A stretch of 64,000 bases of DNA from Candidatus Latescibacterota bacterium (GTDB lineage: Bacteria; Latescibacterota; UBA2968; UBA8231): assembly GCA_965248355.1 (NCBI GenBank), contig OZ252098.1, positions 3,936,001-4,000,000 on the forward strand, read 5' to 3'. Shown here one piece after another: positions 30,054 to 49,427 of this stretch. The notes beneath the pieces were generated by a model. That model was not told where the DNA came from and did no database searches. It was given only the letters and a program-made list of their open reading frames with translations. Position numbers and translations under genes: made by a program. The first letter of the stretch is position 1. Every line of letters starts with the position of its first letter.

Positions 30054-32108
30054 TCACTCCAACAACGCCTTCAACAAGGCGTCCGGCGTGTCGGAGTAGA
30101 ACTGGACATTGACGCGTGTCGCCATGTCGTCGGAAAGCTCGAACAGTTGTTTCCGTGCCGAAACGGGGATCAGCACCGTGTCGGCCCCTTTCTCGACCGA
30201 GGCTTCCACGATGCCCACGGCATTGGCCAAGGGTTCCACCGAGCCGCCCAGGTTCAGTGCACCGACTACGATGAGGCCGCCCTTGAGGCTCTTCTCCAGC
30301 AAGGCACCACAGAGCGCCAGCAACGCCGGCAGCCCGAGGGACGCGCCCAAACGGTCGTTGTCCATGGCGCGAAGTTGCACGGAGAATTCATGGGAGCGTG
30401 GATCCCGGTCTCCGACCAGTTCCCTCGCCCGGGTGTACAGGTTCTGCTCGGCGTACCTGGCACTCTCGCGGAATCCCTGGGGTGCGGGTGCGTTGAGGAT
30501 CCTGACCCCGCTGCCTCGGCCGACCGTGACCTCGAGGCGGTAGAGCGAAGGGCCCGTCTCCGGTCCGCCCGGACCGATTCCCCACACCTGGCCCGGCGGC
30601 AACGGATCCGGGTCGATGGCCTCGTCGCTATGCAGCTCCGGTGTGGCGACGAACTTTTCGATTCCGTCCTCGCCCATGGAGTAACTGAACTGGGTGGTGC
30701 GGAACTCGCTCTTGAACACGCGCTTCTGCTGCTCCTTGACTCTCCGGCGCGCTTCGAGCGCCATACGGACCAGTGATTCCAGCTCCTCGTCCGGCACGGG
30801 CATCTCCGGATCCGGGTACAGCAGCTTGAGCAGGCCGCTCACGGTCTTGTTGACCGCCGTGATGTCCCGTCCGCTCAGGGCGCCGCCGTAGTTCACCCTT
30901 CCTTGTAGCGCCGGAACCCGGCTGCCGGTGCGCAACTGGCTCCAGCACTCCGACAGGAAGTCGCTGACCAGGCCGAAGTGGACGGTGAAGTGCTCCCTGG
31001 GATTCAGCTTCGGGAAGTCCCATCCGGGAACGTAGGCGTGGATTCGGTCCATGAAGGCCGTATCGTCGCGCATGTCCGCGGACAGCGGGCTGAAGAGGTG
31101 ACCGACCCGTTGCTGATGCTCGACCTCCACATCGAGGTTGCCCACCATGGCGACGCCGCCCTCGGCCCGGATGCTCTCCTTGCCGCGCGAGAACTCGCCG
31201 GACTCCATGTAGCCCTTGAGGATGTTCACGCCGTCCTTCTGATCGAAGGAGACGCTGGCGATCTCGTCGAAGCAGACCACGTCGTACTGGCAGACGAGGC
31301 CGCGCTGTCCCGTGGCGTTGTTGACGAACATCTTGGCCACCGTCGCCTTGCCGCCGGAGATCAGGTGAGCGTAGGGAGAGATCTGCTGGAACAGGTGGCT
31401 CTTGCCGGTACCGCGCGGCCCCAGCTCGACCATGTTGTAGTTGCGCTCGACGAACGGCGTCATGCGGATGAGGGCGACCATCTGCGCCCGTTCGGAGAGT
31501 GCCGCCGGCTCCAGTCCGATACTGCGCAGGAGGAGTTGCTTCCACTCCTCGCTGGTGAAGTCCTGGCGGCCTCGCCGGAGGGTATCCAGAGAGTCGGCTT
31601 TCGAGAGCTGGATGGCTCGGAGGCCCTCTATCGCAAAGGGACGGCCATTCTTCTCCTGGGCGATGGCGGCGTCGTAGCCCAGCGTGACCTCGGCGTAGAA
31701 GCCATCGGTCAGCATGCGCTCGTGCTGCTTGACGAGCCCGTCGTCGATACGGACATCTTTGAGCGCGAGGCTTGGAAGTTCCGCAATGAGAGAATCCGTC
31801 TTGGCATCGAGCCTCGCCTTGACGATGTCGATCAGCTTGATGGAGCCTCGGTCCCGAGCCCGCGTCTTGAACAACTCTTCCTCGCCGGTCCGCACGGTGC
31901 GGTCGGCCAGCTGCCGCTCCACGATGGCGAGCCCCTCCTCGATTTCCCGCTCGTCCGTGGTGGCGCAGTAGCGGCCGAGCAGGAACTCCACGACGTAGGT
32001 GGGCACCGGGTACTGGCGGCTGTACTTGCGCACCAGGTCCTTGCGGACCAGGTAGCCGTCGAAGGCCTTGGCCGCGCGCTGGTCGAGTTCGTCGAGTTCC
32101 AGTCTCAA
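30054..32108 (-). CDS. brxL: BREX Lon-related protein BrxL
   Basis: VPTYVVEFLLGRYC, Walker A ELGPRGTGKSH, VCFDE, AFMDRIH, Lon-like C-terminus; overlaps the pglZ stop. Confidence 0.92.
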   Translation of the reverse strand: MRLELDELDQRAAKAFDGYLVRKDLVRKYSRQYPVPTYVVEFLLGRYCATTDEREIEEGLAIVERQLADRTVRTGEEELFKTRARDRGSIKLIDIVKARLDAKTDSLIAELPSLALKDVRIDDGLVKQHERMLTDGFYAEVTLGYDAAIAQEKNGRPFAIEGLRAIQLSKADSLDTLRRGRQDFTSEEWKQLLLRSIGLEPAALSERAQMVALIRMTPFVERNYNMVELGPRGTGKSHLFQQISPYAHLISGGKATVAKMFVNNATGQRGLVCQYDVVCFDEIASVSFDQKDGVNILKGYMESGEFSRGKESIRAEGGVAMVGNLDVEVEHQQRVGHLFSPLSADMRDDTAFMDRIHAYVPGWDFPKLNPREHFTVHFGLVSDFLSECWSQLRTGSRVPALQGRVNYGGALSGRDITAVNKTVSGLLKLLYPDPEMPVPDEELESLVRMALEARRRVKEQQKRVFKSEFRTTQFSYSMGEDGIEKFVATPELHSDEAIDPDPLPPGQVWGIGPGGPETGPSLYRLEVTVGRGSGVRILNAPAPQGFRESARYAEQNLYTRARELVGDRDPRSHEFSVQLRAMDNDRLGASLGLPALLALCGALLEKSLKGGLIVVGALNLGGSVEPLANAVGIVEASVEKGADTVLIPVSARKQLFELSDDMATRVNVQFYSDTPDALLKALLE

Positions 32109-34438
32109 TCTTCACCTCCGATGATCGTCGATTGTCGCGCAATGACGTTACCGCTGGCATCGAGGACGACGATGGCGGCCGTGCTCCCCTCGAAGTCATC
32201 GTCCTCGACCAACAGGCTCGCGGCGCCATCCTCATCCACGGGGCGAGCCTCGCTCAGACTCGAGCTTGCGTCCCCTACCCGGGTTCTCAGATCGACCGAC
32301 AGGCCCGGAAGGACGGGCTCGATCCGCACCCGGCAACGGAGGCGAGTCCAGGAGACATCGGTGATGCGCGTGGCAGCGGTCGCGGTGCCGGCCGTGACGC
32401 GGATGACGGGCACCAGACTCTCCTGGAGGCTCAGGCCTCCGTGCGCGTACTCACGGCCGGCTTCGAAGCAGGCGATGCCGGGCGCCACCGCGACTCGCTC
32501 GCTCGGGTTCCAATGCCAGCTCACCACCGGCGTCTCGACGGTGGAACCGCCCTCGATACCGGCGCAGCGCGCCCAGCGGCTGATTGTGAGATACCTGGGG
32601 AGATCGACCTTGGGCAGCCCGCCCGGAAGCCACAGCCAGCCGTGGTCCGTCACCACCCGAACCTCCCGCCAGCCAGCGTCCAGAAGCATGGCGATGCGTT
32701 CGCGCAGCAGGTCGATCTGTTCGTCGATCCTGGCGGCCAGCCCGGCCTGCAGCGAATGGCCCAGCTTGTCGAGCCCCCCGTGTTCCGTCCAGGCGCGGCC
32801 CGACGACTCGCCTGTCTCATTCCCTTGCAGGTACTGATACCCGTTGGCAACCAGGAGCTTGCGGAACCGGTCGGGGGTCAAGGGCCGCTCGCCATCCGCC
32901 GTTACCGGCCGGAACTCCTCTCCCAGGGACAGACCCGTGATGCTCGCGATCACCGGGGAGACGGCCGGCTTCGAGGTCGCCGTGACCGTGGGCAGAGCAG
33001 CCCACCGTGTCTCCACCGTCACCGAGGCGCCCTCCCCAAGCAGATGTTCGACCAGGCGCTGAGACACGTCGAAGCGGAGGCCGTCCGCGAAGAAAATCAC
33101 GGTCCCGGACTCGACCTGCGGGTCATACGATCCCTGTCGGTCGCGGATCTCAAGCGGCCGTTCCAGCTTCTGCAGATGCCGGGCCGCGGACTCCAGCCAG
33201 GGACCGTAGATCGCCTCCAGTGCCCTGGCCACCGCTTGCGTATCCGCGGAGGACTTCACTGCGGCCATGCCGCGGAGCGCCGCCGCGTCGACTTTCCAGG
33301 CCTCCTCCGCATAGAGTTCGGCCATCTGGGCAAGGGTCCCGCCGCCAAGCTCGCTCGACGTGCCGGATGCCAGCGCCGCCAGGTGCTCCAAGGCGCCCGC
33401 CAGCCGCGCCTGGCCGAGCCTCGTCCAGACCCAGGCGCGTCTCTCACCGTGCGCCTCGTCGAGCTCGATGATCCTCTCACGGGCGTCGGCTGGCGACTTG
33501 CCCCGGAGGTCCAGGAGGGCCTGCCGCAAGGCCGTTTCGTCCGCCTCGTTGTTCTGGGGCCAAGAGGCGCGTTGAGCGAACAAGTCGTCCGGCATGGCCT
33601 TGCGCAACAACCCGGGCACACCCGGGTAAAGGGCCGGGGATTCGGCGAATCGGCTCCACACCGCGGCCCAGGGACCTTCGCGCTTTCCGAGCCGCTCCGC
33701 AGCGACCAGCTCGCCGTCCCTCTCCGGGTCGAACCCGAAGTCCGGCTGGCAACGCGACCGGAAGGCATTCAACCGCGCCCCATCCCAGCGGGCCCTCACC
33801 TCCCCGGCGTCGCTCATCCAGGCAAGCAGGTCCCTGACCGGATCATCGGAGAACAGCCGGTCGAAGTCCTCCGCTTCGAGCCGCCGGCCGTGCAACGCCT
33901 GCACGGGGGTGGTGGCAAGCTCCGCGAGGGCCCGGTGCATGGCATCCCGGGTGCCCGCATCGCGGGCGACGTCGAGTCCAAGACCGCCGTCCCGGGAGGA
34001 GAGGAAGGCCTCCACGGTCCAGTCCCTGCCGTTCTTCTGCTTCCAGCAGGCACCCCGGTACTGGAGCTCGACCAGGGGCTTCAGGTGATGCGGGCAGGTC
34101 TCCGCGGCGCCCAGTTCCCCGCGGCTCACACCGGGCAGGTAGAGGACCGGCGTCGACTCGCCGGGGATCTTGGGAGACTCCAGAGTCCTCTCGATGACGC
34201 AACGCAGCCAGATCGACGGACCGCTGCGGTTCCCGGGATCGTACTCACCGAGGACCACCAGTTGCGGCATGAGGGAGAGCAGCTGCGGGATGATGGGCTG
34301 CCAGCACGCGTCGGGGTCCGTCCACAGGATGGCGGCCGGCTTTACCGCGTCGTTCGGGTTGTGGACGGCGGCGGCTTCGAGGGAGGCCCTAAGTCTCTCG
34401 ACCACGGTGGCGGTGTGTATTGCCGGAATCGCCATCAC
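32105..34438 (-). CDS. pglZ: BREX phosphatase PglZ
   Basis: ADGLRFD, LPTVTATSK, VVTDHG, YAHGGLSLQE. Confidence 0.92.
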   Translation of the reverse strand: MMAIPAIHTATVVERLRASLEAAAVHNPNDAVKPAAILWTDPDACWQPIIPQLLSLMPQLVVLGEYDPGNRSGPSIWLRCVIERTLESPKIPGESTPVLYLPGVSRGELGAAETCPHHLKPLVELQYRGACWKQKNGRDWTVEAFLSSRDGGLGLDVARDAGTRDAMHRALAELATTPVQALHGRRLEAEDFDRLFSDDPVRDLLAWMSDAGEVRARWDGARLNAFRSRCQPDFGFDPERDGELVAAERLGKREGPWAAVWSRFAESPALYPGVPGLLRKAMPDDLFAQRASWPQNNEADETALRQALLDLRGKSPADARERIIELDEAHGERRAWVWTRLGQARLAGALEHLAALASGTSSELGGGTLAQMAELYAEEAWKVDAAALRGMAAVKSSADTQAVARALEAIYGPWLESAARHLQKLERPLEIRDRQGSYDPQVESGTVIFFADGLRFDVSQRLVEHLLGEGASVTVETRWAALPTVTATSKPAVSPVIASITGLSLGEEFRPVTADGERPLTPDRFRKLLVANGYQYLQGNETGESSGRAWTEHGGLDKLGHSLQAGLAARIDEQIDLLRERIAMLLDAGWREVRVVTDHGWLWLPGGLPKVDLPRYLTISRWARCAGIEGGSTVETPVVSWHWNPSERVAVAPGIACFEAGREYAHGGLSLQESLVPVIRVTAGTATAATRITDVSWTRLRCRVRIEPVLPGLSVDLRTRVGDASSSLSEARPVDEDGAASLLVEDDDFEGSTAAIVVLDASGNVIARQSTIIGGED

Positions 34439-34547
34439 CCAACCCGTGAATACGGGTAGCTGTCCCTGATGTGCATGTTGAGGAATCGTCCCTTGGACGG
34501 CGCCTCCATCATCCGGTCACGCACATGGGCGGGCACACCATAGTATT

Positions 34548-36103
34548 GGGTGTAGCTTCCACTTTACGCAGATTTTCAAGAAAGGTGGGACCCCACGTCC
34601 GGGCACGAATGTATCTTTGGGTGTAAGCACTTACGCCCAAACCCGGAGAGGGGTCCCAGATGGAAGATACGAAGGATTTTCGCGCTCGCATGACGAAGTT
34701 GGAGGAAAATGTCCTCCAGTGGGAGCATCGGCTGCAATCTCCGGACGCCGGACCGGAGGACTTTCGCGAGAGGGTGAGCGAGCTGCGAGAGGCGTTGGAC
34801 GACCTCGGTCGAGTCGGTTTCCAACGGCTGGCGCAGGCGTGTGAGATCACCGACGACACCGTGGTCCACCAGGGTCGGGTCTACCGGTTCAAGCAGGTGG
34901 TTGACAAGGAGTGGATGACCCTGTGGGGCAAGGTCCGGGTGCCGCGGCGGCTGTTTCAGCAAGATCGGGGCGGCCCCAGCCGGGTGCTCTTGGATGAGCG
35001 CTGCGGCATGGTCGGCCGATTCATGGTGCCGGCCCTGGAGCGGTTCACCGCCTTCTTGGGGGCCCGCCTGGTCCCGGCCGAAGTCGAAGACAGCCTGACC
35101 GAGGTGCTGCCCGATCCCCCGTCGCGCACCGCCATACAGCATCTGTTGACCACCGTCGGGCCGTACGCCGAAGACCACGCCGAGCAGCTCGAGCTGGCCT
35201 TGCAGGATGTGGCCCCGCTGAAGGCCGAAGGCGACACCCTGGTGGTCAGTTGGGACGGCGTCACCGTGCCCCTGCGGGAGCCGGCGCCGAAACGCGGCCG
35301 GCCCGCCGAACGACCGAGGGACGCCGACCTCGACCGGGCGCCTACCGCCTGGAAAGAGGCGGGCGTGGGCATGGTCGCCACGTATCGGACGCCACTGGAT
35401 CCGGAGACGGAAGACCCCCAACGCGTCGATGTGCGCTATGCCGCGCGCATGCCGGAGGCGAAGATGGAAACCCTCGTCGATGGCTTGGTGGACCAGACGG
35501 GTCGGGCCTTGCAGCAAGGGACCTATGATCACCGGGTGGTGTTGGCCGACGGCAAGCGCGAGATCTGGCGCACCGTGGACCGGCAGCCGGTGTTCGATGG
35601 CTTCACCCGGATCCTCGACTTCTATCACGCCGCCCAACACCTGTCGAAGGCGGCCGAGCATCTCTTCGGCAAGCTGTCGGCCAAAGCCACTCGCTGGTAC
35701 CGGTCCTGGCGCCACAAACTGCGCCACGAGCCCGGGGCCGTGCAGGGCCTGATCCGCTCTCTGGCCTGTCACCGCCGCAAACTTCGAAAAGGCTCCGAAC
35801 GCCATCGTCAGGTGACCACCGAGATGGGCTACTTCCGGAACAACCGCGACAAAATGGACTATGCGCGCTATCACGCGGCGGGGCTGATCCTCTCCAGCGG
35901 CCCCGTGGAGGCCGCCGCCAAAACCCTGGTCGGCCATCGACTCAAACGCAGCGGCATGCGCTGGACCCGCCAAGGAGGCCAGCAGATCCTCAATCTACGA
36001 GCCCAAGTGCAATCCAACCGATGGGAGGCCTTCTGGAACTGGTACCTGAACCAGACGACCCACCAAACCCACAAGAGGGCTGCGTAAAACCGAGGCTACA
36101 CCC
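34548..36103 (+). mobile_element. ISKra4-family-like insertion sequence
   Basis: 24-bp IRs gggtgtagcttccactttacgcag / gggtgtagcctcggttttacgcag; 8-bp TSD atagtatt at 34540-34547 and 36104-36111. Confidence 0.9.
34660..36087 (+). CDS. ISKra4-like (UPF0236) DDE transposase
   Basis: VSWDG, LADG..IW, LDFYHA, SGPVEAA.K...RLKRSGMRW. Confidence 0.88.
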   Translation: MEDTKDFRARMTKLEENVLQWEHRLQSPDAGPEDFRERVSELREALDDLGRVGFQRLAQACEITDDTVVHQGRVYRFKQVVDKEWMTLWGKVRVPRRLFQQDRGGPSRVLLDERCGMVGRFMVPALERFTAFLGARLVPAEVEDSLTEVLPDPPSRTAIQHLLTTVGPYAEDHAEQLELALQDVAPLKAEGDTLVVSWDGVTVPLREPAPKRGRPAERPRDADLDRAPTAWKEAGVGMVATYRTPLDPETEDPQRVDVRYAARMPEAKMETLVDGLVDQTGRALQQGTYDHRVVLADGKREIWRTVDRQPVFDGFTRILDFYHAAQHLSKAAEHLFGKLSAKATRWYRSWRHKLRHEPGAVQGLIRSLACHRRKLRKGSERHRQVTTEMGYFRNNRDKMDYARYHAAGLILSSGPVEAAAKTLVGHRLKRSGMRWTRQGGQQILNLRAQVQSNRWEAFWNWYLNQTTHQTHKRAA

Positions 36104-36215
36104 ATAGTATTGGTAGACCCAGCCGCTCAGGAATTCGACCTCGAGGGTTTGCGTCTCTGCGTCGTAGCCAATCGACCTTACCATCGTGGATGAAACAGGG
36201 TATTTGTCCACGGTT

Positions 36216-37484
36216 CTACTCAGTCACCTCCGGAGCAGCCGCGTAGATGGTGAGCAGAAGCTCGGCGTCGCCGATCATCCGGTAGGTCGGTGTCTTTCCC
36301 GAGAGACGCTCGCTGTTGTCGAGGATTACTCGCACCCCTTCGCCACGGCGGTCCATCAGAGTTGCGCGGTCGGTGGTCAGCCAAGAGTGGTCGGGTACCG
36401 GGCTTCGCGCCAGCAGACTGGCAACAGTCTCGTTGCGGGACGACTGAATGTGCACCAGATCGTCGACGCCCATCGAATTGGGGATCGACCCCGGCGAGTA
36501 GATCTCCAGCCGGTCATCGAAGAGCCGCAAGCGGATTTTGGACCCGTGGATGGAGTAGTCCCGGTGCGCGACGGCATTGACCACCGCTTCGAACACGGCC
36601 GCCATGTCGAACTGCGGTCGGTCCACCCGTCCCATGTTCTTGAAGGCCGCGGTCTTCATATTCTTGGCGACGAAGCGGCAGGCGTTCTCGACTTGCGCAT
36701 CCAGCGGTCCGGCCACGTCTTCGGCGTCGAGTTGGTAGGGATCGCCCGATCCCACGCGGACTTCGGTGCCGCGGTAGGCAACGGCCTGAACGTAGGCACT
36801 GGGCAGCCACTCCCGAGGGTCCGTCGCAGCAAGGAGAATGCCCGAAACGGTCGGCTTGAGGTTGCCCCGTTCATCGGTTCGCGCCAGGTGCAGGTTTGAC
36901 AGGAAGCGGGAAGACTCCGTTGCCGACCGGGGGGTTCTGAACCGCTCGACCAGGTCATCCTGCAGGTCGTCGAGCGAGGCCTCGGCCACGACCTCCTCGT
37001 CGAAACGCACCAGACCGGTTCGGGAACGCTGCGCCAGCAGGCGCGCGAGATACTCGGTGGACATGGGCCGCTTCTCGCTCCCGACCCGGAGCAGGTATCC
37101 GCCGGGGCTGCGATGAACGAACAGGCTGGGCGCAACGTCGATCTTGATTGCCGGAACCTCGTCCCCCGTCGCGGTTGGCAGCTCAAGGCGCTCGATGATG
37201 GGCGCAACGGAGGGGTCGATCGAGTCCCGGCAGATCTCGCGCACGAACAATTCCGCCGCGTCGAGACCCTCGGCCGGGATGCCCAGGACCTCGCGGGGCT
37301 TGTCCTGGACGCCCAAGACGATCACGCCGCCGTGGCTGTTGGCAAAAGCAGCGATTTCGTCCGCAAGCGAGTCGCGACGCGGCTCCTTGACCTGTCTGCC
37401 TGCCAAGCGCACTTCCTTCAACTCCAGATAGGAGTCCTCGCCCAGGCGGATCTTGTCGAGAAGTTCGCGCTTGCTATCGAACAT
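36216..37484 (-). CDS. Schlafen/AlbA_2 + HATPase_c_4 domain protein (no C-terminal HTH)
   Basis: GEDSYLELKE, IAAFANSHGGVIVLGV.D, EAVVNAVAHRDY, IYSPG, RN, RGEGV. Confidence 0.85.
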   Translation of the reverse strand: MFDSKRELLDKIRLGEDSYLELKEVRLAGRQVKEPRRDSLADEIAAFANSHGGVIVLGVQDKPREVLGIPAEGLDAAELFVREICRDSIDPSVAPIIERLELPTATGDEVPAIKIDVAPSLFVHRSPGGYLLRVGSEKRPMSTEYLARLLAQRSRTGLVRFDEEVVAEASLDDLQDDLVERFRTPRSATESSRFLSNLHLARTDERGNLKPTVSGILLAATDPREWLPSAYVQAVAYRGTEVRVGSGDPYQLDAEDVAGPLDAQVENACRFVAKNMKTAAFKNMGRVDRPQFDMAAVFEAVVNAVAHRDYSIHGSKIRLRLFDDRLEIYSPGSIPNSMGVDDLVHIQSSRNETVASLLARSPVPDHSWLTTDRATLMDRRGEGVRVILDNSERLSGKTPTYRMIGDAELLLTIYAAAPEVTE

Positions 37485-40299
37485 CGGCCCGCCCCTGTCC
37501 GAGGCGGCGGTAGCGACGCTCGAAAGCCTCCCGCCCTCCTTCCATGATGCGGCAGACTTCCTCGCGCATGGCCGATTCCTGCAACGAACCACGTTGCGTG
37601 ACCACACACTGGCCGTTGCAGAAGTCGAGGGCGTGCAGCATTTCGGCGTCGCCGTTGACGACGACGTTGGGATTGTGGGTGACCACGACGATCTGTCGGC
37701 GGCGCTTGTTCTCCCGCATCTGCCGCACCACCAGGTCGTAGATCAGGTGGTTGTCGAGGTCGTCTTCGGGCTGGTCCAGCACCAGGGGTTCGTCGCCGTG
37801 GGCCAGCAGAAAGGCGAGCATGGCGGCCGCGCGTTGTCCCGCCGAAGCCTGGCTGATGGGGCGAAAGCCGGTGCCGTCGCCCGTGGGGCTGTACTCCACC
37901 CGCAAGCCGTCTTCAGGGAACCACGCGAGCAGGCCGTCCAGCAGGGCGGGCGAGCGTTTGGTCTCGCGCTCGAGGTAGTTGCTGAAGGCACCCCCGAAAC
38001 GGCCGTTACCTCCCGCGCTTGCCGTCTGGACACGTTCCTTCCATTGCGCGATGCGCTGTTCCATCTCCCGACCGTGCTCGTCGGCGGACTCTGGAAGGTC
38101 TGCCAGCAAGTCCACGACACTCCCCCTGGGACTGCCCCCATCGTCCGTCAGGATGTCACTTTGAAAGCGGTTGTCGATCACGTTGAGGACATCCCGCATG
38201 GAGCGCTCAACGACGCGGGCCTCGTCGCCATATGGCCGTATCGAGATGCGCACGAAGCGGTTCCCGGCAAGAGCTTGGGCGAGAAATGCCGCGCGTGCGG
38301 CAGTCACGGCGCGGCGGCAGTCGAGGACGCGATCCAGGCTCTCGCGAGCATGCGCGGCCAGCCGATCACGCTCTTCCGCCAAGGAGTCCAGATCGGCCAG
38401 TTCCCCGTCGAGCCGCTGGCGATCCTGGGTCAGGCGGCCGTATTCGCTCGGATCTGCGACGCCCTCGGCCTGAAGGTCGCGAACGAGCGCGTCGTAGTCG
38501 TCCTCGGCCTGCCGGGCCGCGGATGTCCAAGTGCTGTCTGCGAGTGCCCGGCGCTGCGCAGCCAGCGCCTCACTCAGACGTGCGGCCGCCCTGGGCAAGT
38601 CCTGGCGGGCGGCTTCGACCGAAGAGGCCAGGTCAGCAATGATCGCCGCGGCGGCCGCATCCTCCGGTGAGTCGTCGAAGGTCCCTGCCGGCAGATCCTC
38701 GGGCAGCAATTCCTCGGCGCGGGCTTCGATTCGCCCGGCGATCTCCTCGGCCGTCTCGAACTGCCGCTCGAGCTCGCGGCGCTGTCTACGCCGGCGCTGG
38801 TAGGTCGCAAGAACGGCCTGATGGCCTGCCTCCTCGAAGCGGCTGAGCTTGCGGTGGGTGTCCTGCCGTTCCACCTCCAGACCGTCCCGGGCCTGCAACT
38901 GCGTCTCGAGTTCCCGCACCCGCGCCCGCAGCGTCTGGAAGGCGTTGACGGCTTCGGCAAGCTTCCGCTTCGGCCCGTTCGTATCTGCGGCATCGTCGAT
39001 CACGCCGAGCAGCGCCTGCTGGTTGTCGCCGGCCAGTTCGGCGATCTGCCCCTGGTTGAAGATGCGCAAGGGAAAGCGTTGGCTGTTTACGCTCTGTACC
39101 GGCGACTCCTGCCAGGCGGCGCCGGCCTCCTCCTCCACGACAACACCCTTGGCCTCCTGGCGCCAATGGACGCGATGCCGCACTTCGTCTCGGACCACAG
39201 TCCACGTGATCGCGGTCGAGGCCCGCAGGCCGCCGTCCTCACTCCGTTGCGAAGGCAGGCGGTCGAAACGCTCGAAGGTCCGCCGCACCGGACTGTGGGT
39301 GTCGAGACGGGTCAAGTCCGTGTGGCGCCTCGATGCGAGCCTGAGAGCATGGACCACCGTGGACTTTCCGGTTCCCCGCCCGCCGACCAGGGCGTTGAGC
39401 CAGGGGCTGAACTCGATCCGGGCGGGTTCGCCGCGCCCCATGAAGCGGGCATCGCTGATCTCGATGGATTCGATGTAATGAGTCGGCAGCCTGTTCGGAT
39501 CGAAGGGGTCAGGATCGTCGCTGCGCCGGATGGAAAAGCCGGGTCCGTCGAGCAGAGCCAGACGCAGTCCTTCCAAGGAGGGCACGGACATCTTCACCCA
39601 AGTGGAGTGCGAGCCGGGGGTCCGCTTTCCCGACGCAAGAGCCGGGTGATGAGAATCCGATCCGAGCACCTCGGCCCATGCGAGCTTGCGCTGCCGGTAG
39701 AGTTCGGGCGGGTCCGACGCCGGATCGACCACCTCCATGGCAAACAGGGCGGAGCAATCGAGCAGGGGGCCGAGGCTGCTTCCGGGCAACCCCCAGGCCC
39801 CTGAGGGGCCGTCTGCGTGTGCGGGTATCGCGATGGCTCCGTTCTCCGCGATGGCCTTCACTACTTCAATGACCGACGCATCGGCGGCCCGGTCGCCTTG
39901 CCCGCGCACACCCTTGTATCGGACCGCTCCGAGGAGCGCGTTGATGTCCGCGGATCCCTTCGCCGTATCGAAGAGGGCGAGCAGGTGAATGCCGGCGTTG
40001 GCGGTGATCTCGACGCCGGGGAAGAGATGCAGCGGACAATAGTCGGGGTGGTCCTGGAGTCCTTTCAGCGCCTCTTTCAGCTTGTCGATCCACTCGCCGG
40101 AGTTATGGTCCGTAACCGCCACGCAGTCCACCTCGGCCCGCATGAAGCCGAGCAGCCAGTCTTCCGGTGTGATCTGCCGCAGGGAATCCTGGTTTTCCCC
40201 CTTGCCGTAGTCCGCAGATGCGGGCGTATGGGTGTGGAAATCGAACTTCCACCACCGTGCCCCAGGGTAGGGCCACTCATGTTCTGTGCTGATGGTCAT
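37474..40299 (-). CDS. PHP phosphoesterase fused to SMC/ABC-like ATPase (Ppl/TrlF-like architecture)
   Basis: PHP motifs DFHTHTP, VTDHN, GVE, IPAH, GSDSH; Walker A GGRGTGKS, coiled coil, SAGQR, LDQPEDDLD, VTHN. Confidence 0.88.
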   Translation of the reverse strand: MTISTEHEWPYPGARWWKFDFHTHTPASADYGKGENQDSLRQITPEDWLLGFMRAEVDCVAVTDHNSGEWIDKLKEALKGLQDHPDYCPLHLFPGVEITANAGIHLLALFDTAKGSADINALLGAVRYKGVRGQGDRAADASVIEVVKAIAENGAIAIPAHADGPSGAWGLPGSSLGPLLDCSALFAMEVVDPASDPPELYRQRKLAWAEVLGSDSHHPALASGKRTPGSHSTWVKMSVPSLEGLRLALLDGPGFSIRRSDDPDPFDPNRLPTHYIESIEISDARFMGRGEPARIEFSPWLNALVGGRGTGKSTVVHALRLASRRHTDLTRLDTHSPVRRTFERFDRLPSQRSEDGGLRASTAITWTVVRDEVRHRVHWRQEAKGVVVEEEAGAAWQESPVQSVNSQRFPLRIFNQGQIAELAGDNQQALLGVIDDAADTNGPKRKLAEAVNAFQTLRARVRELETQLQARDGLEVERQDTHRKLSRFEEAGHQAVLATYQRRRRQRRELERQFETAEEIAGRIEARAEELLPEDLPAGTFDDSPEDAAAAAIIADLASSVEAARQDLPRAAARLSEALAAQRRALADSTWTSAARQAEDDYDALVRDLQAEGVADPSEYGRLTQDRQRLDGELADLDSLAEERDRLAAHARESLDRVLDCRRAVTAARAAFLAQALAGNRFVRISIRPYGDEARVVERSMRDVLNVIDNRFQSDILTDDGGSPRGSVVDLLADLPESADEHGREMEQRIAQWKERVQTASAGGNGRFGGAFSNYLERETKRSPALLDGLLAWFPEDGLRVEYSPTGDGTGFRPISQASAGQRAAAMLAFLLAHGDEPLVLDQPEDDLDNHLIYDLVVRQMRENKRRRQIVVVTHNPNVVVNGDAEMLHALDFCNGQCVVTQRGSLQESAMREEVCRIMEGGREAFERRYRRLGQGRADVR

Positions 40300-40426
40300 G
40301 GCTGCTTTGCCTCTGATTGGTTCCGGCGCGTCTGCTCTCGGCCTGATTTCATGTGGACCACCCTACGCCCTCATCCCGTGAAACTTGCCGGCAATCCAGA
40401 AGGTAATTGTGCGCACGATTCGGGGC

Positions 40427-41905
40427 TCATTTCGCACGATTCCCGGGCATGTCGAGGGACGGCTCGGGGAGGTATCGGGCACCCCTGCCCTTGCCCTCCA
40501 TGCGAAGGAAGCCGCCCTCGACGAGGCGGCGCAGCTCGCGGGCGGCGGCATAGCGGCTGACCGCGAAGATCCTGCGGTAGTCGGCGTTGCTCAGGCTCGG
40601 GTGCCGGAGGAAATGCTCGCGCAGGCCCGCTGACCGAGAGCTGGCGAATTCGGCGATTCCGGGGGCTGCATCCGGCCCCGCGGCAACCGGCTCGTTGTAG
40701 AGACGGACGGAGAACACGCCGTCCTCCATCTCGACCTCCGGCTCCCGCAGGAAGCTCTCCTCCATCTCTTCGAAGATCCGCGCGACGCCCTCTCCCTCGT
40801 CGCGCATGACCCCGGCATCGGCCAGCACCCGCACGATGAGGGGATTGCGGGTGGCGTGGGCAGGAAGGCGCTCCCGAAGCTTGGCGAGGGTCACGGGGGG
40901 TAGCAGATCGCCGGGGCTCGACACCTCCATTCGGTCTTCGTAGAACCAGGCTTCCACTTCGCGGCCCTGATACTCGTAGTCCCGGTGGGCGAAGGCATTG
41001 ACGATAGCCTCCTGCCAGGCGAAGTCGGGGTATTCGGGGACCTCTTCGAAAAAGAGGCCGTTGAGCTTTTCGGAGCGGTGGACCTGCTGGCCGGCGAGCC
41101 TGTGGGCTTCGGCAATCGCCCTCGCGAGCGGTGGGTCGGCGCGGCCGACCTGCGTTACGTTTCTTCGCCGGCCATGCTGACGGCTCGTCCCGGCGACCCG
41201 AAACAGCCGCAGACCCGCGCGCGGATGCCACCGGAGCGCGGGCGCCCTGGCGAACAGCAGGAGCGCGGCGTTGGTGACCCGCCACTCCTGCGCGGCCTGC
41301 TCGATCAGGCCGTAGTAGCTGAGTGCCTCCGTGACCGGGCGCGCTCCGAAAGGGGTGCGGTCCAGGAATTCCCGGGCAAGTTCCAGGTCGAGGTCGTCCA
41401 GGGTCGCGTCCGCGCGGTAGCGTTGCTCGTAACCGACTCGGCGGTAGACCTGCTTGCGTTCGTTGATGACTTCCTGCGGCTCTCGCGTCACGTGGTCGCC
41501 GACGCGATACGGGAAGCCGTTGCCGTCGATCATGACCGCTTCGGGAGCGATCGGCACGCTGAACACGAGCACTTCGATTCCGGCGATGCTCAGCCGGCCG
41601 CTGCGGCATGAAACCGGCGGCCTCAGCCGCTTCCGCGGAACAGAAACAAACTCCTCGATCACGTCGTCAGGATAGTCGCAGCCCGTCGGCGTTCCGTCGT
41701 CTTCGACACCGATCAGGAGCAGGCCGCCGTCGGCATTGGCGAAGGCCGCGACCGACTCGGCGATGGTGTCCCGAACCGCCCGGCGCCTGACCTGCTTCGG
41801 CGTGTCGCCGCTCCGGTCCCAGGCCGACTTGAACTCCAGGAACTGCCCCTCGTCGCGGGAGACCAGGTCGCGAAGCTCCCCTTCGGTGAGTATCGGCGTC
41901 TTCAT
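40427..41905 (-). CDS. Schlafen/AlbA_2 + HATPase_c_4 + winged-HTH protein
   Basis: EGQFLEFKS, VAAFANADGGLLLIGVED, EAIVNAFAHRDY, RNP, C-terminal A.RELRRLVE.G...GKGRGARY; start overlaps the pglX stop. Confidence 0.85.
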   Translation of the reverse strand: MKTPILTEGELRDLVSRDEGQFLEFKSAWDRSGDTPKQVRRRAVRDTIAESVAAFANADGGLLLIGVEDDGTPTGCDYPDDVIEEFVSVPRKRLRPPVSCRSGRLSIAGIEVLVFSVPIAPEAVMIDGNGFPYRVGDHVTREPQEVINERKQVYRRVGYEQRYRADATLDDLDLELAREFLDRTPFGARPVTEALSYYGLIEQAAQEWRVTNAALLLFARAPALRWHPRAGLRLFRVAGTSRQHGRRRNVTQVGRADPPLARAIAEAHRLAGQQVHRSEKLNGLFFEEVPEYPDFAWQEAIVNAFAHRDYEYQGREVEAWFYEDRMEVSSPGDLLPPVTLAKLRERLPAHATRNPLIVRVLADAGVMRDEGEGVARIFEEMEESFLREPEVEMEDGVFSVRLYNEPVAAGPDAAPGIAEFASSRSAGLREHFLRHPSLSNADYRRIFAVSRYAAARELRRLVEGGFLRMEGKGRGARYLPEPSLDMPGNRAK

Positions 41906-43601
41906 CCGGGGAGCTCCTGGGCCATCGTCAGCTCCCGCTCCCGGGCGTTGTGTTTGGCGGTGGCGGTGTAGTGGAGGTCATTCCAGCGGTTACCGTCGAA
42001 GTCCGGACCGCCGGGAAAATCGGTGCGTTCGGCCTGCCCGCTGGCTCCGGGGCAGCTCCAAAACCAGGGGAACTCCTCCCGTGGACGCAGCTCCTCGTCG
42101 GCGTCCGGGTCCCAGACATCGTCCTCCAGCCAGGGAGGCTTCGACCGTTTGCCGCGGGTCAGGGGTTCCTTGCCGCGGTCCTTCCTCCAGTGAATGTTCG
42201 GCTTGGAGCGCAGGATACCGGCGCCCTTCTTGCCTCCGGGGATGTCCTCGGCCATGAAGGGCCGGATGTTGAGGCGCACGCCGTCGTTGATGTCCGGCTC
42301 CCAGCCGATGGGCTGCTCTTTGAGGGGCTTCCAGCGGACGAAGATGTCGAAGGGGGGCTCGCCTTCGAGGATGGCGGCCAGGCGCTTCTGCAGTTCAAGC
42401 GCAGCGACAAGACGGTCGTCCGTTGCTTCTTCGCCGCGTTTCACGCCGTCCCGTTGGCGGGTGATCCAGTCGCCGAGATAGCTCCAGGTCAGGGATTCGA
42501 GGAGTTGGCGGCCCTTGCCTTGACCCTCGACCAGCTTGTGGTAGTTGACCAGGGCCTGGAAGCCGTCGCGCCGGCCGTCATGGATGTGCCAGAGGAAGGG
42601 GCGGTGCCAGAGGAAGGGGCGGTGGTGGAAGAGCTTGCAATGCTCCTCGAAGAAGCGGTTGCGGAGCCAGTCGTCGAGAGAGGCGGTGCCTGCTTGGGCG
42701 AGGAGTTTGCCGAGCATGCCGTCGTCCCAGGCTGCGCCGAAGGCGGCTGCCAGCAGTCCGAGGAGCCGGTCGCCGGCGGGCGGCTCGCCGCGTACGGAGG
42801 GGATGCAGACGATGCCGTCCTTGTCGGCGTGGGGTAGCAGGCTCTCGCAACGCCTCACCCATTCGCGCTGCTCTTCGGAGAGCTCCATGTCGGCATCCTT
42901 CTCCGTGGGCCAGCGGTAACCGAGCAGGCGGGCGATCGCGACCTGCAACACAGTGGGGTCGGTGCGGAGAGGGCCATGAGCAGTCCACTTCAGGGTTTCG
43001 TTCCAGACGACCGACCCGCAGGGGTGGCCGTGGAAGATCCATTGGGTGGGGTCGTCGGAGTAGGGGCGGGGGAGGCCGTTGGGGTATAGTTCGCCGGCGA
43101 CCGTGGTCCAGTGGTCGAGGTCGAATGGGACCATCGTCAATGTTCCAGCTGTGACGTTGAGCTTTTGGTCGATGGACCGTACATCCTCGTGGTATTGATC
43201 TGACTGGACATAAGACCAAACAGCAGGGTTCAGACCGGCATCCCTCGGCGAAATCGGGCATACGTTGTCGTCAAAGACCTCCCCAGCGTAGAGAAAAGGC
43301 TCCAATCGCCGCATCTTGTTGACCGCGACTCCGGTACGCCCAAAGACACGCTGGCCGTGTATCCTACAGCCCTTTTGCACACTGAGGTCCGAATCGGTCA
43401 ATGATACCTTGCATACCTGCATCCGACCGGACCATTCCGTTCCGTTTGGCGAGTTCAGCCACTTGACATGATGTGATGCAGTGGCGGGGAACTCCCAGAA
43501 ACAGGCCAGGAATCGAGGGCCATCGCCGGTTGTGCTGCCCTTTCCATAGTCTGCAATGTTTGCCAGCAGCTCTCCTCTCTTTGGGCTATCGGTAGTGATG
43601 A

Positions 43602-45149
43602 CCCTAACGTTGCATAAATCTGTTTGAAGGCGGTGGTGTGATCAGGCGGCATCCTTCAGTGTTTCGAGGAAATGCAACAGATCTTTTTCCACTTTTGGAT
43701 TGGAGTTCAGGGTCAGGGTCAACTCGCCCTTGGGCCGAGTGAGGCGCCCGGCGCGCTGAATGAAGCGATGACGCAGAGTGTCCAAGGTCTGGAAGGTCCA
43801 CGCCGCCGGGCGTTTGGCGCGCGAATAGTTGGATCGCGCCTGCGCCCGCATCTGCATTTCGCGTCCCAGATTGTGGGCCATCATCGCACACAAAGTCACC
43901 ATCTGGTTGCCGAGCAGCCGCCGGGTGGGGATCAGATCCAGCCCGGCCTGTTGCTTGGCCTCGGCGAAGATCCCTTCCTGGGCGCCGCGGCCATAGTGGA
44001 AGAGGAGCACGCGGCGGGCCGAGATCCTCTTGTTGGTCACCAGAACGCGGTACTCATGATCGATGGGCCGGGGTTCGAACAGATCCAGTTGCAGCGGTTC
44101 CTTGGTCTGACGCGCGACCGCACGGCGGACCAAGAGAAATCGGTACGAGGCGGGCCAGCGTTGGGGTTTCCAGTCACTCTCGAAATAGGCGCAGTGTTCA
44201 TCGAGAAAGCGCCAGCGCTGGCGCGCTTCGATCTGGTCCTTGAGTACGGGGAAGCGTTCGAAAGGGACACTGATCGTGCATTCGACGCCATACAGGTCCA
44301 GGAGCGTGAGCGTGTCCTGGCTGAAGAAGGCACTGTCGAGTCGGGACTCGAGCACGGTAGGCGCCAGCGCGTCGCGCACCCGATCGAAGGCGTCCATCAT
44401 GAACGCATGGGCGTCCTTGCTGTCATGGACGTTGCCGGGGCGGTGAAGGACATCGAAGAACTGTCCGGTCTGCGCCACCGTACAGAACAGGTTGTAATAG
44501 CTGCGCGCCCCTTTCTTTTTCGGATTATAGCCCACGGCGGTCCCTTCGGCATGACCACAAGTGGAGATCACCGAGCCGTCGAAGTCGAGGGTCAGACGGG
44601 GGAACCGCTCGCGCTGGAGCGCCTGCACCACCAGGACCGAAGACAGGTGGCGCACTTTTTCGATACTCGAACGGCCCATTCTTGCGAGGGCGCGACTGAG
44701 GGTGGCCACGTCCGGCAGGCGGCGCAAGCCCAACAGACGCAGCACCACCGGATCGTCCCGGTAATAGTCCATGTCTCGCAGCCGCCGGAAGCCCAGCAGC
44801 AGATGCACGATGAGCAACAACACCATGAGATGGGGACCAAAGATCGCGGAGCTCTTGGCGGGGAAGCACGACTTCAGCCGAGTCTTCAGATCCAGGCGCC
44901 GGAAGAGCAGTTGAAAAACGATGGCTCCCGCAAAGGAAGTCAGCTGTTGATCCTCGAAGCGAAGATGCGGGAGCTTGTGAAAACGGGCCAAAATGTCTTC
45001 TTTTCTGAACCTCACTTGCGGTGTCCTTCTGAAAGGGGTCGATACATGTCTTGGTCGACAGTATCAAATACCCCTTTTTCAGAGGGCGCCGCAAGTGACA
45101 ATGGGCCGTTCGGAGGAGGAAAAAGCCCTGTTCTTATGCAACCAGAGGG
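43602..45149 (-). mobile_element. IS1380-family insertion sequence
   Basis: IRs ccctaacgttgcataa / ccctctggttgcataa; flanking duplication atga (4 bp, or gatgac 6 bp if ends are taken as cc/gg). Confidence 0.9.
43642..45015 (-). CDS. IS1380-family transposase
   Basis: LTSFAG, TLSR, TLDFDGS, RPGNVH, RLDSAF, RGAQE.IF.E.K. Confidence 0.9.
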   Translation of the reverse strand: MRFRKEDILARFHKLPHLRFEDQQLTSFAGAIVFQLLFRRLDLKTRLKSCFPAKSSAIFGPHLMVLLLIVHLLLGFRRLRDMDYYRDDPVVLRLLGLRRLPDVATLSRALARMGRSSIEKVRHLSSVLVVQALQRERFPRLTLDFDGSVISTCGHAEGTAVGYNPKKKGARSYYNLFCTVAQTGQFFDVLHRPGNVHDSKDAHAFMMDAFDRVRDALAPTVLESRLDSAFFSQDTLTLLDLYGVECTISVPFERFPVLKDQIEARQRWRFLDEHCAYFESDWKPQRWPASYRFLLVRRAVARQTKEPLQLDLFEPRPIDHEYRVLVTNKRISARRVLLFHYGRGAQEGIFAEAKQQAGLDLIPTRRLLGNQMVTLCAMMAHNLGREMQMRAQARSNYSRAKRPAAWTFQTLDTLRHRFIQRAGRLTRPKGELTLTLNSNPKVEKDLLHFLETLKDAA

Positions 45150-47151
45150 ATGACTTGATTTGGGTTCTTCAGGTAATCCCGCTGGCTGTGTCCCGCCATC
45201 CTCACCTCGCGTAGACTCGCGGCCTTCTCTCCTGCGGTTCGAAACTTGGAGACGTCCAGGCCGTGCATCATGCCGGCTCGCGTCCCTTCGCTGAACCGCC
45301 CGCTCTTCTGCTGTCGAGGCTTGCCGCGGCTCAAAGTGAGCAGGATGGCCTGGACGACCTCGCCGCTGATGGTTTCGAACGCTCCCGGCCCCAGAAGGGC
45401 AAGCAAGTGCCAAGTCTCCTCCTTGAGCAGTCTCTCCCGGAGTTTCTTGTAGCTCTTGAGAAACCGCCAGTTCTGCGGCAGCACGAGACTAACGGTTCCA
45501 CCCTCCGCACACAGCTCCAGGCAGCGCTGCAGGAACACGGTGGCCAAGTCGTTCTTGGCGGCGGGGTACTTCGCCAGGCAGAAATCGCGCAGCGTTTCCA
45601 CCTGCTTGCCGCGGGTGAGATACGGCACGTTGGTGATCACCAGGTGATAGCTTCCTGCCATCAGCTCCGCGGCGCTCGCCATCCCCCGCGCGGTGACGGC
45701 CCGCTCCGCCTGCTCGTCGGAGGTCAACTCCTGTTTGAGGACCGCGGCGAAGAGCGACCGCACCGACTCGTAGTCGCTTTGAAAAAGGTCGCCCTTCAGC
45801 TCGCGCGGATCGGTGAGGGAGCCGCGCTCCGGGGCCTTCCCGAAGAGATCGTGGAGCTCTTCCAAGCTGTTGCGGAGCCGCGCCGAGAGCAGGTTGTCAT
45901 CGACCCCGAAGAGGCTGCGGTCGGCCGGCATCCCGCCGGCCTCCGCGGCCTGCTGTGCCAAGTCGATCCACTGTTCCTTCGTGGCGTTGGGGGCGAGGCC
46001 GGAGCAGGCGAGGCGCAGCTCCGGCAGGGGGCGGTACCCGCCCGCGCCGGGGTAGGTCCAGGCAGCGAGGGCGAGGGCGAAGGCCGCAAGCTCGACGCAG
46101 CGGGGGTCCAGCTCCAGCCCATACAGGTTCTCCCTCAACACCGCGTCGATGGCCTCGGGCAGGGCGAGCCCCTCCTGCTCCATGCGCATGGGAACCAGCA
46201 TGGAAAAGGCGGCGACCAGGAAGTGGCCGGAGCCGCAGCAGGGGTCGAGGACCTTCAGGTCTCCGAGGTGGTCCGGCCATGCGTCGAAGGCGCCGGCGGC
46301 AGGGCGCCATCCCCTCTGCTCCTCGGTCTCTTCACTTCGCACGAAGCGCAGGAAATCGAGGGGCGCGCCGGGGACCGCCGCCATCCGGCGCAGGGTGGCT
46401 TCGGTGTCAGCTTCCCGCAGATCGGCTTCGCTCAGGCGGCGTGACGCCCACCACGCTCCGAGGGTGTTGTCGAGCAGAAAGCTCACCATGTAGGGCTCGG
46501 TGAAGAGCTGCGTCACCGCGGGCAACTCGTCGGCGCCGACCTTAACCTCGGAACGGTTGACCTCGGCCTTCTTCCTCGACTGCCAGAACTGGTAGACCCA
46601 CCCGAGAGAATCGGTGGCAGCGAACACCTCGGGGGGAAGACCCTCGACAAGCCCTTCGAGCTTGAGCCGGTGTTCCCGCGCCAAGCGGACCTCGAAGGCC
46701 GGGTGATCGGGCCGGAACACCTGGGGCAGCATGCCATGGGCGAAGCGCGCGGCCATGGTCCACTTGTCGGCGCCCTCCTCCTTGCCCAGTTCCTCGCATT
46801 CTTCGAGGGTGACGGGGACGTCATGCTCCGGCTCGATGAGCAGTCGATTCTCGGCGAGGAAGCGGGCGAACAGCATGCCGTGCCAGTGCTCGTACGCGCA
46901 CTCGTGCACCAGGTGCCCGATCTCATGACCTCTGGAGCGAGGGTCGCGGGAGTCGCCGAGTTGCCGGGCGCGGGCGCGCAGCCGCTGGCGCAGCGTGCGC
47001 TGGCCGGCGCTCATGTGGGGGTACGGCTCGCGGTGGTGCACGGCCAGCCCCTTCAGGGCCACGCGGGCGCCGGTCTCGGCAGCGTCGCGGGCATCCGCGA
47101 TTGTCCGCTCAAGCTGCTTCCGCAGGTTCGGGGCCAGCGTCTTCATTGAAA

Positions 47152-49338: not shown

Positions 49339-49427
49339 ATCTCCCTCCTGTTCGGCGACGCGGCTCACCGCTGTCGTAGCTCGGGCGCGGGGTGACGTTC
49401 TGTAACGTGCGCATCCAAGTGCCCGCC

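Follow-up and report, generated by a model that had tools for sequence, protein, structure and literature searches.

Between pglX and pglZ of a type 1 bacteriophage exclusion (BREX) operon in Candidatus Latescibacterota bacterium lie four further genes, all on the minus strand, within the 64,000-nucleotide (nt) stretch of contig OZ252098.1 that was analysed here (positions 3,936,001 to 4,000,000; referred to as the window, whose first letter is position 1 for the coordinates below). They encode a Schlafen protein (Slfn1), a large ATPase with a PHP head (TrlF), a second Schlafen protein (Slfn2, or TrlG) and a small KTSC-domain protein. The question raised by this locus is whether the four genes make up one system that serves BREX, as a preliminary description of the sequence had proposed, or whether separate units share a landing site. 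Our analysis indicates that the gap probably holds two independent anti-phage units, Slfn1 on its own (unit A) and a mobile trlF-trlG-KTSC cassette (unit B), both parked in a type 1 BREX operon. We regard the locus as known units, well preserved, that have nested in BREX in an ordinary way, and not as a new four-gene system; the combination had been described as unnamed, yet its central pair is the trlF-trlG of Photorhabdus, and TrlF is an established NCBI family name. The features of the gap, in a window that is G+C-rich throughout (about 0.6-0.7), are as follows.

40427..41905, minus strand: Slfn1, Schlafen nuclease plus GHKL ATPase ('Schlatpase'), unit A
40300..40407, minus strand: 108-nt stretch ahead of the ATPase gene that forms the upstream edge of the mobile cassette; 95% identity to genome G006 begins at 40407
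37474..40299, minus strand: TrlF, Ppl-like PHP plus ABC (SMC-like) ATPase, 941 amino acids (aa), unit B gene 1
36216..37484, minus strand: Slfn2/TrlG, Schlafen nuclease plus GHKL ATPase, 422 aa, unit B gene 2
36105..36211, minus strand: KTSC, N-terminal part, unit B gene 3 (Pfam KTSC PF13619, profile 1-31 of 58, 1.4e-11)
34435..34546, minus strand: KTSC, C-terminal part, read from the sequence, with its stop overlapping the pglZ start

The four co-oriented genes were found where the preliminary description had placed them, and the presence of defence-type genes inside BREX was corroborated by PADLOC, Pfam and NCBIfam. The tight coupling that had been claimed held at four junctions: an ATGA at 41902-41905, read from the sequence, is common to the pglX stop and the Slfn1 start; TrlF and Slfn2 overlap by 11 nt; the Slfn2 stop lies 4 nt from the GTG of KTSC (36211); and at 34435-34438 the TGA of KTSC runs into the start of pglZ. 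It did not hold between Slfn1 and the ATPase, which are separated by a 127-nt gap. Overlapping or near-abutting junctions at four of five boundaries, in genes that all face the same way, are what might be expected of an integrated guard resembling PrrC, in which BREX would keep the ATPase and the Schlafens inactive until its inhibition (by Ocr, for instance) set RNA cleavage free, and this alternative is followed below wherever the evidence bears upon it.

The trlF-trlG pair and its distribution

TrlF passed the NCBIfam TrlF_fam_ATP model (NF045780) with 587 bits against a cut-off of 350 (profile 2-944 of 944), and its likeness to Ppl, noted in the preliminary description, was confirmed by a full-length match to the PADLOC Ppl model (4.2e-123, profile 4-892 of 894). 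It failed the NCBIfam Ppl_antiphage equivalog (NF042955), scoring 499.8 bits where the cut-off is 1000. No PHP family was reported for this protein by the Pfam-A scan; the PHP assignment follows from the Ppl and TrlF profiles and the invariant His/Asp columns: an alignment of 21 homologues had invariant PHP-site residues (H22/H24, D64/H65, H161/D163 and H217) as well as invariant Walker A (306-314), signature (819-822) and Walker B (842-846) motifs. Weaker partial matches to the Ppl profile occur elsewhere in the same genome (G000:C1, ~4.883-4.886 Mb and 4.304-4.305 Mb; L002-L005), one of them within a 916-aa open frame, and these may be divergent paralogues.

Slfn2 begins at the ATG at 37484, a start (MFD...) kept in most of 63 listed orthologues, and its SLFN_AlbA_2 and HATPase_c_4 domains both score above the Pfam cut-offs. 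The catalytic acidic residues anticipated for the two Schlafen proteins are present in both, with the Ex4(E/D)xK motif kept: E16/E21/K23 of Slfn2 in 64 of 64 aligned orthologues, and E19-x4-E24-x-K26 in the Slfn1 translation. The GHKL region of Slfn2 is likewise conserved among the aligned orthologues, with invariant N-box residues and invariant E299, N303, H307-R-D-Y and G381/G383. Foldseek searches with a predicted Slfn2 model (mean predicted local distance difference test score, pLDDT, 83.6) matched the N-domain to SLFN14, SLFN11, SLFN13, SLFN5 and the SAMD9 tRNase at probability 1.00, the C-domain to GHKL kinase folds, and the full length to the uncharacterised bacterial protein 3lmm. The model supports a predicted Schlafen fold for the N-domain and a predicted GHKL fold for the C-domain.

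A one-genome-per-species collection was the source of ATPase relatives; 600 stretches matched, 587 of them were confirmed, and the best 80 of the 587 were taken as loci and searched with the window proteins. An Slfn2 orthologue (45-65% identity) directly followed the ATPase gene in 66 of these 80 loci, from many phyla, with one more cut by a contig end, and the two genes overlapped as a rule. Pairwise distances of TrlF and TrlG were correlated across 60 loci (Mantel r 0.81, a value that 0 of 999 permutations reached). The ATPase tree (FastTree, 74 rows, leaving out L010 and L040 for an internal stop in the matched stretch and L029, L052, L075 and L084 as short or partial) had its phyla mixed, and the pair therefore travels as a unit. 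The same pair occurs on a RefSeq Burkholderia plasmid, the sole record in a plasmid search with Slfn2, where a 'TrlF family AAA-like ATPase' precedes an Slfn2 orthologue of 60% identity. The remaining 13 loci lacked Slfn2 despite at least 1.6 kb of following sequence; they are scattered on the tree, requiring at least 5 changes, and look like repeated losses of the Schlafen partner. Effector swapping was considered for these 13 loci and rejected, as no alternative effector was found and the neighbours were unrelated or other defence genes.

Co-occurrence elsewhere, which had been set as a test of the four-gene proposal, was thus found for the ATPase and Slfn2 and not for their companions. A gene of the Slfn1 type upstream of the ATPase was represented by weak Schlafen matches in only 4 of the 80 loci, and KTSC lay beside the pair in none of the 80, nor in any of the 63 checked for small downstream open reading frames (ORFs). 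No conserved small ORF was found upstream of trlF across 76 loci, and no conserved small gene downstream of trlG across 63; the only small-ORF clusters around the pair were alternative frames within HmaB or HmaC and a two-locus Schlafen fragment. Short Schlafen-like fragments just after the TrlG orthologue were observed at L007 (14233-14433) and L058 (14083-14415), perhaps a trace of Schlafen genes having recombined more than once in these gaps.

For the 66 pairs, the nearest gene to either side was compared with PADLOC models (E-value limits of 1e-20 for one half of the pairs and 1e-40 for the other), and 64 pairs had a scannable neighbour. A defence gene adjoined the pair in 31 of these 64. 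Hma genes adjoined eight pairs, typically placing them between the HmaB methylase and HmaC, restriction-modification (R-M) genes adjoined four, and MADS two. BREX-1 PglX or PglZ adjoined seven pairs, two further pairs lay in BREX-1 by tblastn, and PglXI/BrxHI-type BREX adjoined three, which gives 12 of 66 pairs inside BREX and 54 outside. In the eight BREX-1 loci with both sides visible, the pair was always between pglX and pglZ. The BREX locus L024 has two consecutive pglX-like matches upstream of the cassette, where the methylase gene may be duplicated or present in an alternative form.

PrrC shows obligate linkage to the system that it guards, and PARIS sits in the BREX locus of Salmonella. 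The guard concept has been established for PrrC and proposed for PARIS in BREX (10.1101/2024.01.29.577857), and the constant position of the BREX-1 pairs in the pglX-pglZ gap also speaks for a guard at this locus. With 54 pairs outside BREX and eight of the 66 in Hma, however, the obligate linkage on which the PrrC analogy turns was not observed, and Slfn1 and KTSC, which are not conserved with the pair, cannot be counted with it as one arm of BREX.

The ATPase-Slfn2 pair corresponds, on domain layout, to trlF-trlG, which has already been described, though not as phage defence. The 'temperature restriction locus' (TRL) operon of Photorhabdus comprises trlR, trlF and trlG, of which trlF carries a PHP annotation and TrlG, mis-annotated as recG, has AlbA_2 at 14-128 and HATPase_c_4 at 298-365 (accessible text of bioRxiv 10.1101/2020.06.02.129163). 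The window and the TRL operon of Photorhabdus laumondii share a large PHP-annotated ATPase gene followed by an AlbA_2 plus HATPase_c_4 gene, and the Pfam domains of Slfn2 are placed as in TrlG when compared by the published layout. In contrast, the window has no small trlR-like gene upstream (the space being the 127-nt gap), possesses a downstream KTSC gene, and is nested in BREX. The authors also noted that, on a Yersinia plasmid, the TRL genes are syntenic close to fragments of type I R-M systems.

An alternative reading is that trlF-trlG is mainly a locus for growth control under stress or temperature, its placement in BREX being incidental. The only genetics on the pair favours it: in the Photorhabdus work, as far as its accessible text goes, trl transcription is induced by heat, and growth at 36°C becomes possible when trlG carries a point or stop mutation or when the operon is deleted, so that the arrest depends on trlG (10.1101/2020.06.02.129163). 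However, a defence gene directly adjoins nearly half of the scannable pairs, the pair is found time and again embedded directly behind the methylase gene in both BREX and Hma, its distribution is patchy with phyla mixed, and its kin, namely Ppl and other bacterial Schlafens, are tested anti-phage proteins (accessible texts of PMC12904381 and 10.1101/2025.07.24.666596); heat may be an accidental trigger. We consider a primary role in growth control unlikely.

Mobility of the cassette and independence of Slfn1

Close relatives help to delimit the units; this pglZ was found in only 2 of 60 of them. In G025 the gap holds, after an intact pglX, a PDC-M38A-type ABC ATPase gene, an Slfn1 copy without its nuclease domain, the ATPase, Slfn2 and KTSC, followed by pglZ, and the ATPase and Slfn2 are each 97% identical to those of the window. 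In G035 the ATPase is gone and KTSC persists beside Schlafen remnants, the Schlafen genes of its gap being truncated and frameshifted. In the same-genus genome G006, where pglZ was not found, the ATPase, Slfn2 and KTSC genes lie outside BREX between a polysaccharide deacetylase gene and a glycosyltransferase gene. The DNA match between G006 and the window (95%) opens at 40407, 108 nt ahead of the ATPase gene, and closes precisely at the KTSC stop, and the mobile unit is a three-gene, 4.4-kb cassette of trlF, trlG and KTSC.

Between the window and G025, differences at four-fold degenerate sites were 0.048 for trlF, 0.079 for trlG and 0.19 for the Slfn1 remnant, compared with 0.25-0.34 for pglX, brxC and pglZ. 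The low values for trlF and trlG relative to the BREX genes imply that the cassette was exchanged more recently than BREX diverged. Both this synonymous divergence, far below that of the BREX genes, and the existence of a G006 cassette outside BREX run counter to a PrrC-like guard.

Slfn1 is a separate, stand-alone gene. Its domains score above the Pfam cut-offs (SLFN_AlbA_2 5.1e-18; HATPase_c_4 7.8e-21), and its C-terminal extension of ~90 aa has no Pfam match. Besides G000 and the truncated copies of G025 and G035, homologues with 31-41% identity occur in 24 further genomes of the 168 in the phylum, and a PglZ-like neighbour was present at only one of 26 re-scanned loci. A PDC-M38A-type ABC ATPase gene replaces the Slfn1 nuclease domain in G025 (L086, 10811-13125) and in G035 (L088, 8974-11375); the swap spans window positions 41502-42054 and leaves a GHKL-only Slfn1 remnant, which is frameshifted in G035.

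KTSC, insertion sequences and the state of BREX in this strain

The KTSC gene of the window is interrupted by an insertion sequence (IS). Intact 70-aa orthologues are present in G025 (PF13619 5e-23, profile 1-58 of 58) and G006, with which the C-terminal part of the window gene shares 88.8% and 94.8% DNA identity, respectively. Set against its absence beside the pair in the surveyed loci, KTSC joins the pair in this lineage only. A KTSC homologue was found in 12 of the 168 genomes of the phylum: beside TrlF-TrlG in three, Schlafen remnants in one, SIR2-HerA in one (G107), nothing recognisable in one, and OLD-type ABC ATPases in six (G070, G047, G060, G054, G056 and G159). A TOPRIM gene accompanies the OLD-type ATPase in four of these six, the loci of G056 and G159 ending before the TOPRIM position. 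KTSC thus adjoins TrlF-TrlG, Schlafen remnants, OLD-type ABC-TOPRIM or SIR2-HerA in 11 of 12 genomes, and these neighbourhoods point to an accessory role of a general kind. KTSC is not among the PADLOC models, and a metagenome scan for relatives confirmed 3 of 599 stretches, all weak and none with a window-like neighbour. KTSC has been called DNA-binding, and HerA-KTSC systems have been mentioned (PMC9503650); these resemble the present case in that a small KTSC protein adjoins an ATPase-nuclease conflict system, whereas in the window KTSC is partnered by an ABC ATPase and a Schlafen. Of all that the locus offers, only the KTSC association is a fresh lead.

A type 1 BREX operon (brxA, brxB, brxC, pglX, pglZ and brxL) was identified on the minus strand by PADLOC, Pfam and NCBIfam. 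Extra genes occupy two of its gaps, the four genes under study between pglX and pglZ and two others between brxC and pglX, and the operon carries two IS elements, of which the one splitting pglX was absent from the preliminary description:

53438..54226, minus strand: brxA (PADLOC BrxA 3.6e-93)
52887..53441, minus strand: brxB (PADLOC BrxB 3.8e-70)
49428..52868, minus strand: brxC/pglY ATPase (PADLOC BrxC 1508 bits, profile 1-1145 of 1146)
48532..49431, minus strand: ADP-ribosylglycohydrolase (ARH)-like gene with an internal deletion (Pfam ADP_ribosyl_GH, profile 6-137 of 287 only)
47420..48535, minus strand: HEC-01A-type ABC ATPase, partner of the ARH-like gene (PADLOC HEC-01A 5.7e-152; Pfam AAA_21)
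45150..47146, minus strand: pglX, N-terminal part, methyltransferase (PADLOC PglX 1-628 of 1125, 1.1e-275)
43602..45149, no strand assigned: IS1380-family element inside pglX, 1548 bp (transposase 43642-45015, minus strand)
41902..43601, minus strand: pglX, C-terminal part (PADLOC PglX 712-1121 of 1125, 1e-180)
34547..36104, no strand assigned: ISKra4-family element inside KTSC, 1558 bp (transposase 34660-36087, plus strand)
32105..34438, minus strand: pglZ (PADLOC PglZ 8.6e-302; NCBIfam BREX_PglZ_1_B 910 bits)
30054..32108, minus strand: brxL (PADLOC BrxL 8.6e-287; Pfam BrxL_ATPase and BrxL_N)

The IS1380-family element (transposase NCBIfam transpos_IS1380 2.1e-66) has 16-nt terminal inverted repeats and a 5-bp target duplication, and the pglX N-terminal part ends at its boundary; eight full-length copies, the pglX copy included, are present in the genome at 100% as printed. 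The ISKra4-family element has 25-nt inverted repeats and a 9-bp target duplication, its transposase matches NCBIfam transpos_ISKra4 (8.1e-54) with 183.3 bits, below the model cut-off of 205, and elsewhere in the genome it has one identical copy and seven at 87-90%. Both IS families have recently been active in this genome, and at ~3.4949 Mb an ISKra4-family copy is apparently nested in an IS1380-family copy. IS-free alleles were recovered at both sites in contigs of runs X7 and X8, which join 43596 to 45149 in pglX (the site being bridged mismatch-free by one X7 contig) and 34537 to 36102 in KTSC. Because these contigs bridge the flanks without either element, the insertions are recent and polymorphic. 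Apart from the IS, the middle of pglX (43195-43601 and 45150-45221) has no DNA alignment to G025 and both flanks align at 84-88%; the unaligned middle may be a diverged target-recognition region.

PglX is needed for both BREX methylation and BREX defence, and because pglX is split by the IS, BREX should be dead in this strain, with both functions lost. Slfn1, trlF and trlG are nevertheless full-length, and the strain lives. A toxin triggered by loss of BREX would not readily allow this, and together with the distribution and divergence of the cassette it leaves the PrrC-like guard, in our view, a highly improbable account of the four genes. Unless the cassette is silent, KTSC is unlikely to be an essential antitoxin, since the strain survives with the gene broken.

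Silence is the core of another alternative, in which the whole region is decaying cargo in this strain, the IS in pglX being polar, KTSC broken, and the intact frames a reflection of how recent the insertions are. Each IS comes from a family of which identical copies exist at other places in the genome, the ARH-like gene has an internal deletion, the same gap contains truncated or frameshifted Schlafen genes in G025 and G035, and a scan of 40200-40500 for promoters and terminators returned nothing, with no sigma-70-like site in 40300-40407. Weighing on the other side, Slfn1, trlF and trlG retain all their conserved motifs; the G006 copy, which belongs to no operon, must therefore be transcribed from a promoter of its own, and it shares the 108-nt leader with the window. 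Contigs of RNA library X1, 90-95% alike and from a relative, cover trlG and trlF, possibly through DNA carry-over, and library X2 gave short contigs only, most of them on IS elements. We regard silent decay of the whole region as very unlikely.

The ARH-like gene and the HEC-01A-type ATPase (47420-49431) form a separate embedded unit outside the four-gene finding. The partner of this ATPase is ADP-ribosylglycohydrolase-like and not TOPRIM as described for HEC-01. The two halves of the ARH-like gene match sequences ~830 nt apart in G025, revealing the internal deletion in the window copy. Two ATPase homologues, P0079 and P0092 (~1454 aa each), carry a fused ARH domain, and ARH with an ABC ATPase may be a recurring theme.

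Known counterparts and biological meaning

The closest single-gene counterpart of TrlF is Ppl, reportedly from Millman et al. 2022. E. coli Ppl is a 3'-5' exonuclease on single-stranded DNA that is held off by bound nucleoside triphosphates and switched on by nucleotide depletion together with free 3' ends, and in the accessible text of the source it is described as acting alone (PMC12904381). The window ATPase has the same layout of PHP and ABC ATPase over ~900 aa, with conserved metal-binding and Walker residues; it differs in falling below the Ppl equivalog cut-off and in having a Schlafen partner that is conserved in 66 of 80 relatives.

Both Schlafens of the window combine an AlbA_2 nuclease with a PF13749 GHKL ATPase, the commonest bacterial Schlafen architecture. 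According to the accessible text of 10.1101/2025.07.24.666596, bacterial Schlafens cleave tRNA, carry Ex4(E/D)xK, and are fused to kinases in 34% of cases and to kinase-helix-turn-helix (HTH) modules in 19.2%, while that of 10.64898/2026.05.29.728809 reports a GHKL domain in 58.6% of Schlafen proteins and names the 'Schlatpase' supradomain. A fixed partner gene is not reported in those portions of either source, whereas Slfn2 is tied to TrlF as a gene pair.

Both the idea of Schlafens as back-up effectors in BREX and the embedding of defence genes in BREX operons have already been published. Schlafen-kinase-winged-HTH 'backup suicidal effectors' are closely linked with BREX or BREX-related core loci in at least 1017 taxa (main text of PMC12839542), and the argument from embedding, PrrC and Ocr ('guilt-by-embedding') is in print (bioRxiv 10.1101/2024.01.29.577857). 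The window shares with these accounts the accessory nuclease systems inside the operon and the reasoning of layered defence; it differs in that their main texts lack PHP, a Ppl-Schlafen pairing and KTSC, the terms PHP, Ppl and KTSC having no occurrence each in the main text of PMC12839542. No link of TrlF-TrlG to Ppl or Schlafen biology was found in the full texts covered, which did not extend to the supplements of PMC12839542 or to Krishnan et al. 2020; the main text of PMC12839542 cites the latter for Schlafen-linked ABC-ATPase systems, and either may contain the pair.

Under the preferred reading of two independent units, Slfn1 would act as a single-gene prokaryotic Schlafen with a GHKL ATPase. 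TrlF would be the two-gene-form relative of Ppl, with a PHP phosphoesterase head on an ABC ATPase, and by analogy with the E. coli protein it may detect infection from DNA 3' ends and a drop in the nucleotide pool, and degrade DNA. TrlG, probably coupled to TrlF in translation, would be a Schlafen tRNase whose GHKL domain drives ATP-dependent oligomerisation into an active nuclease, leading to a stop of translation and growth; this step draws on the Schlafen-Argonaute RzAgo, on other bacterial Schlafens and on the growth arrest due to trlG in Photorhabdus. KTSC might be a small, lineage-specific accessory, probably DNA-binding, that modulates ATPase-nuclease modules. Each unit would work alone, and BREX would offer a landing site, co-transfer and layered defence but not a signal.

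Several observations weigh against this reading. The Slfn1 C-terminal part, like the cassette, has raised identity to G025, and some co-transfer of units A and B may have occurred. The 13 scattered partner-less relatives mean that the Schlafen partner is dispensable for some members. The Photorhabdus study reports, in its accessible text, no mutations in trlF (10.1101/2020.06.02.129163), and TrlG may therefore act without TrlF. Since TrlF scores below the NCBI Ppl cut-off, the mechanism of E. coli Ppl is transferred by analogy only. Finally, expression in this strain is put in doubt by the IS upstream in pglX together with the promoter-like site before trlF that was not found.

Two linked ideas go further, namely that most of the 'single-gene' Ppl family are in fact two-effector systems and that KTSC is an unrecognised, exchangeable accessory of ATPase-nuclease modules; taken jointly they are tentative and rather doubtful. 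In such a two-effector system TrlF would keep the TrlG tRNase in check until infection is sensed and then free it, much as AriB is freed by PARIS. If true, this would tie the temperature-restriction phenotype of Photorhabdus to abortive infection.

The picture of BREX itself is unchanged by these findings; what is seen is the same mobile cassette re-using the gap after the methylase gene in BREX and in Hma. For the ATPase family, defence-finding tools that treat Ppl as one gene miss the Schlafen gene that accompanies most relatives (66 of the 80 closest loci). The parts worth following up are the KTSC accessory, a lead on a small domain that would be cheap to test, and the connection of Ppl and Schlafens with the TRL phenotype, for this locus joins three published threads: the Ppl DNA exonuclease, the bacterial Schlafen tRNases and the unexplained trlG growth arrest of Photorhabdus.

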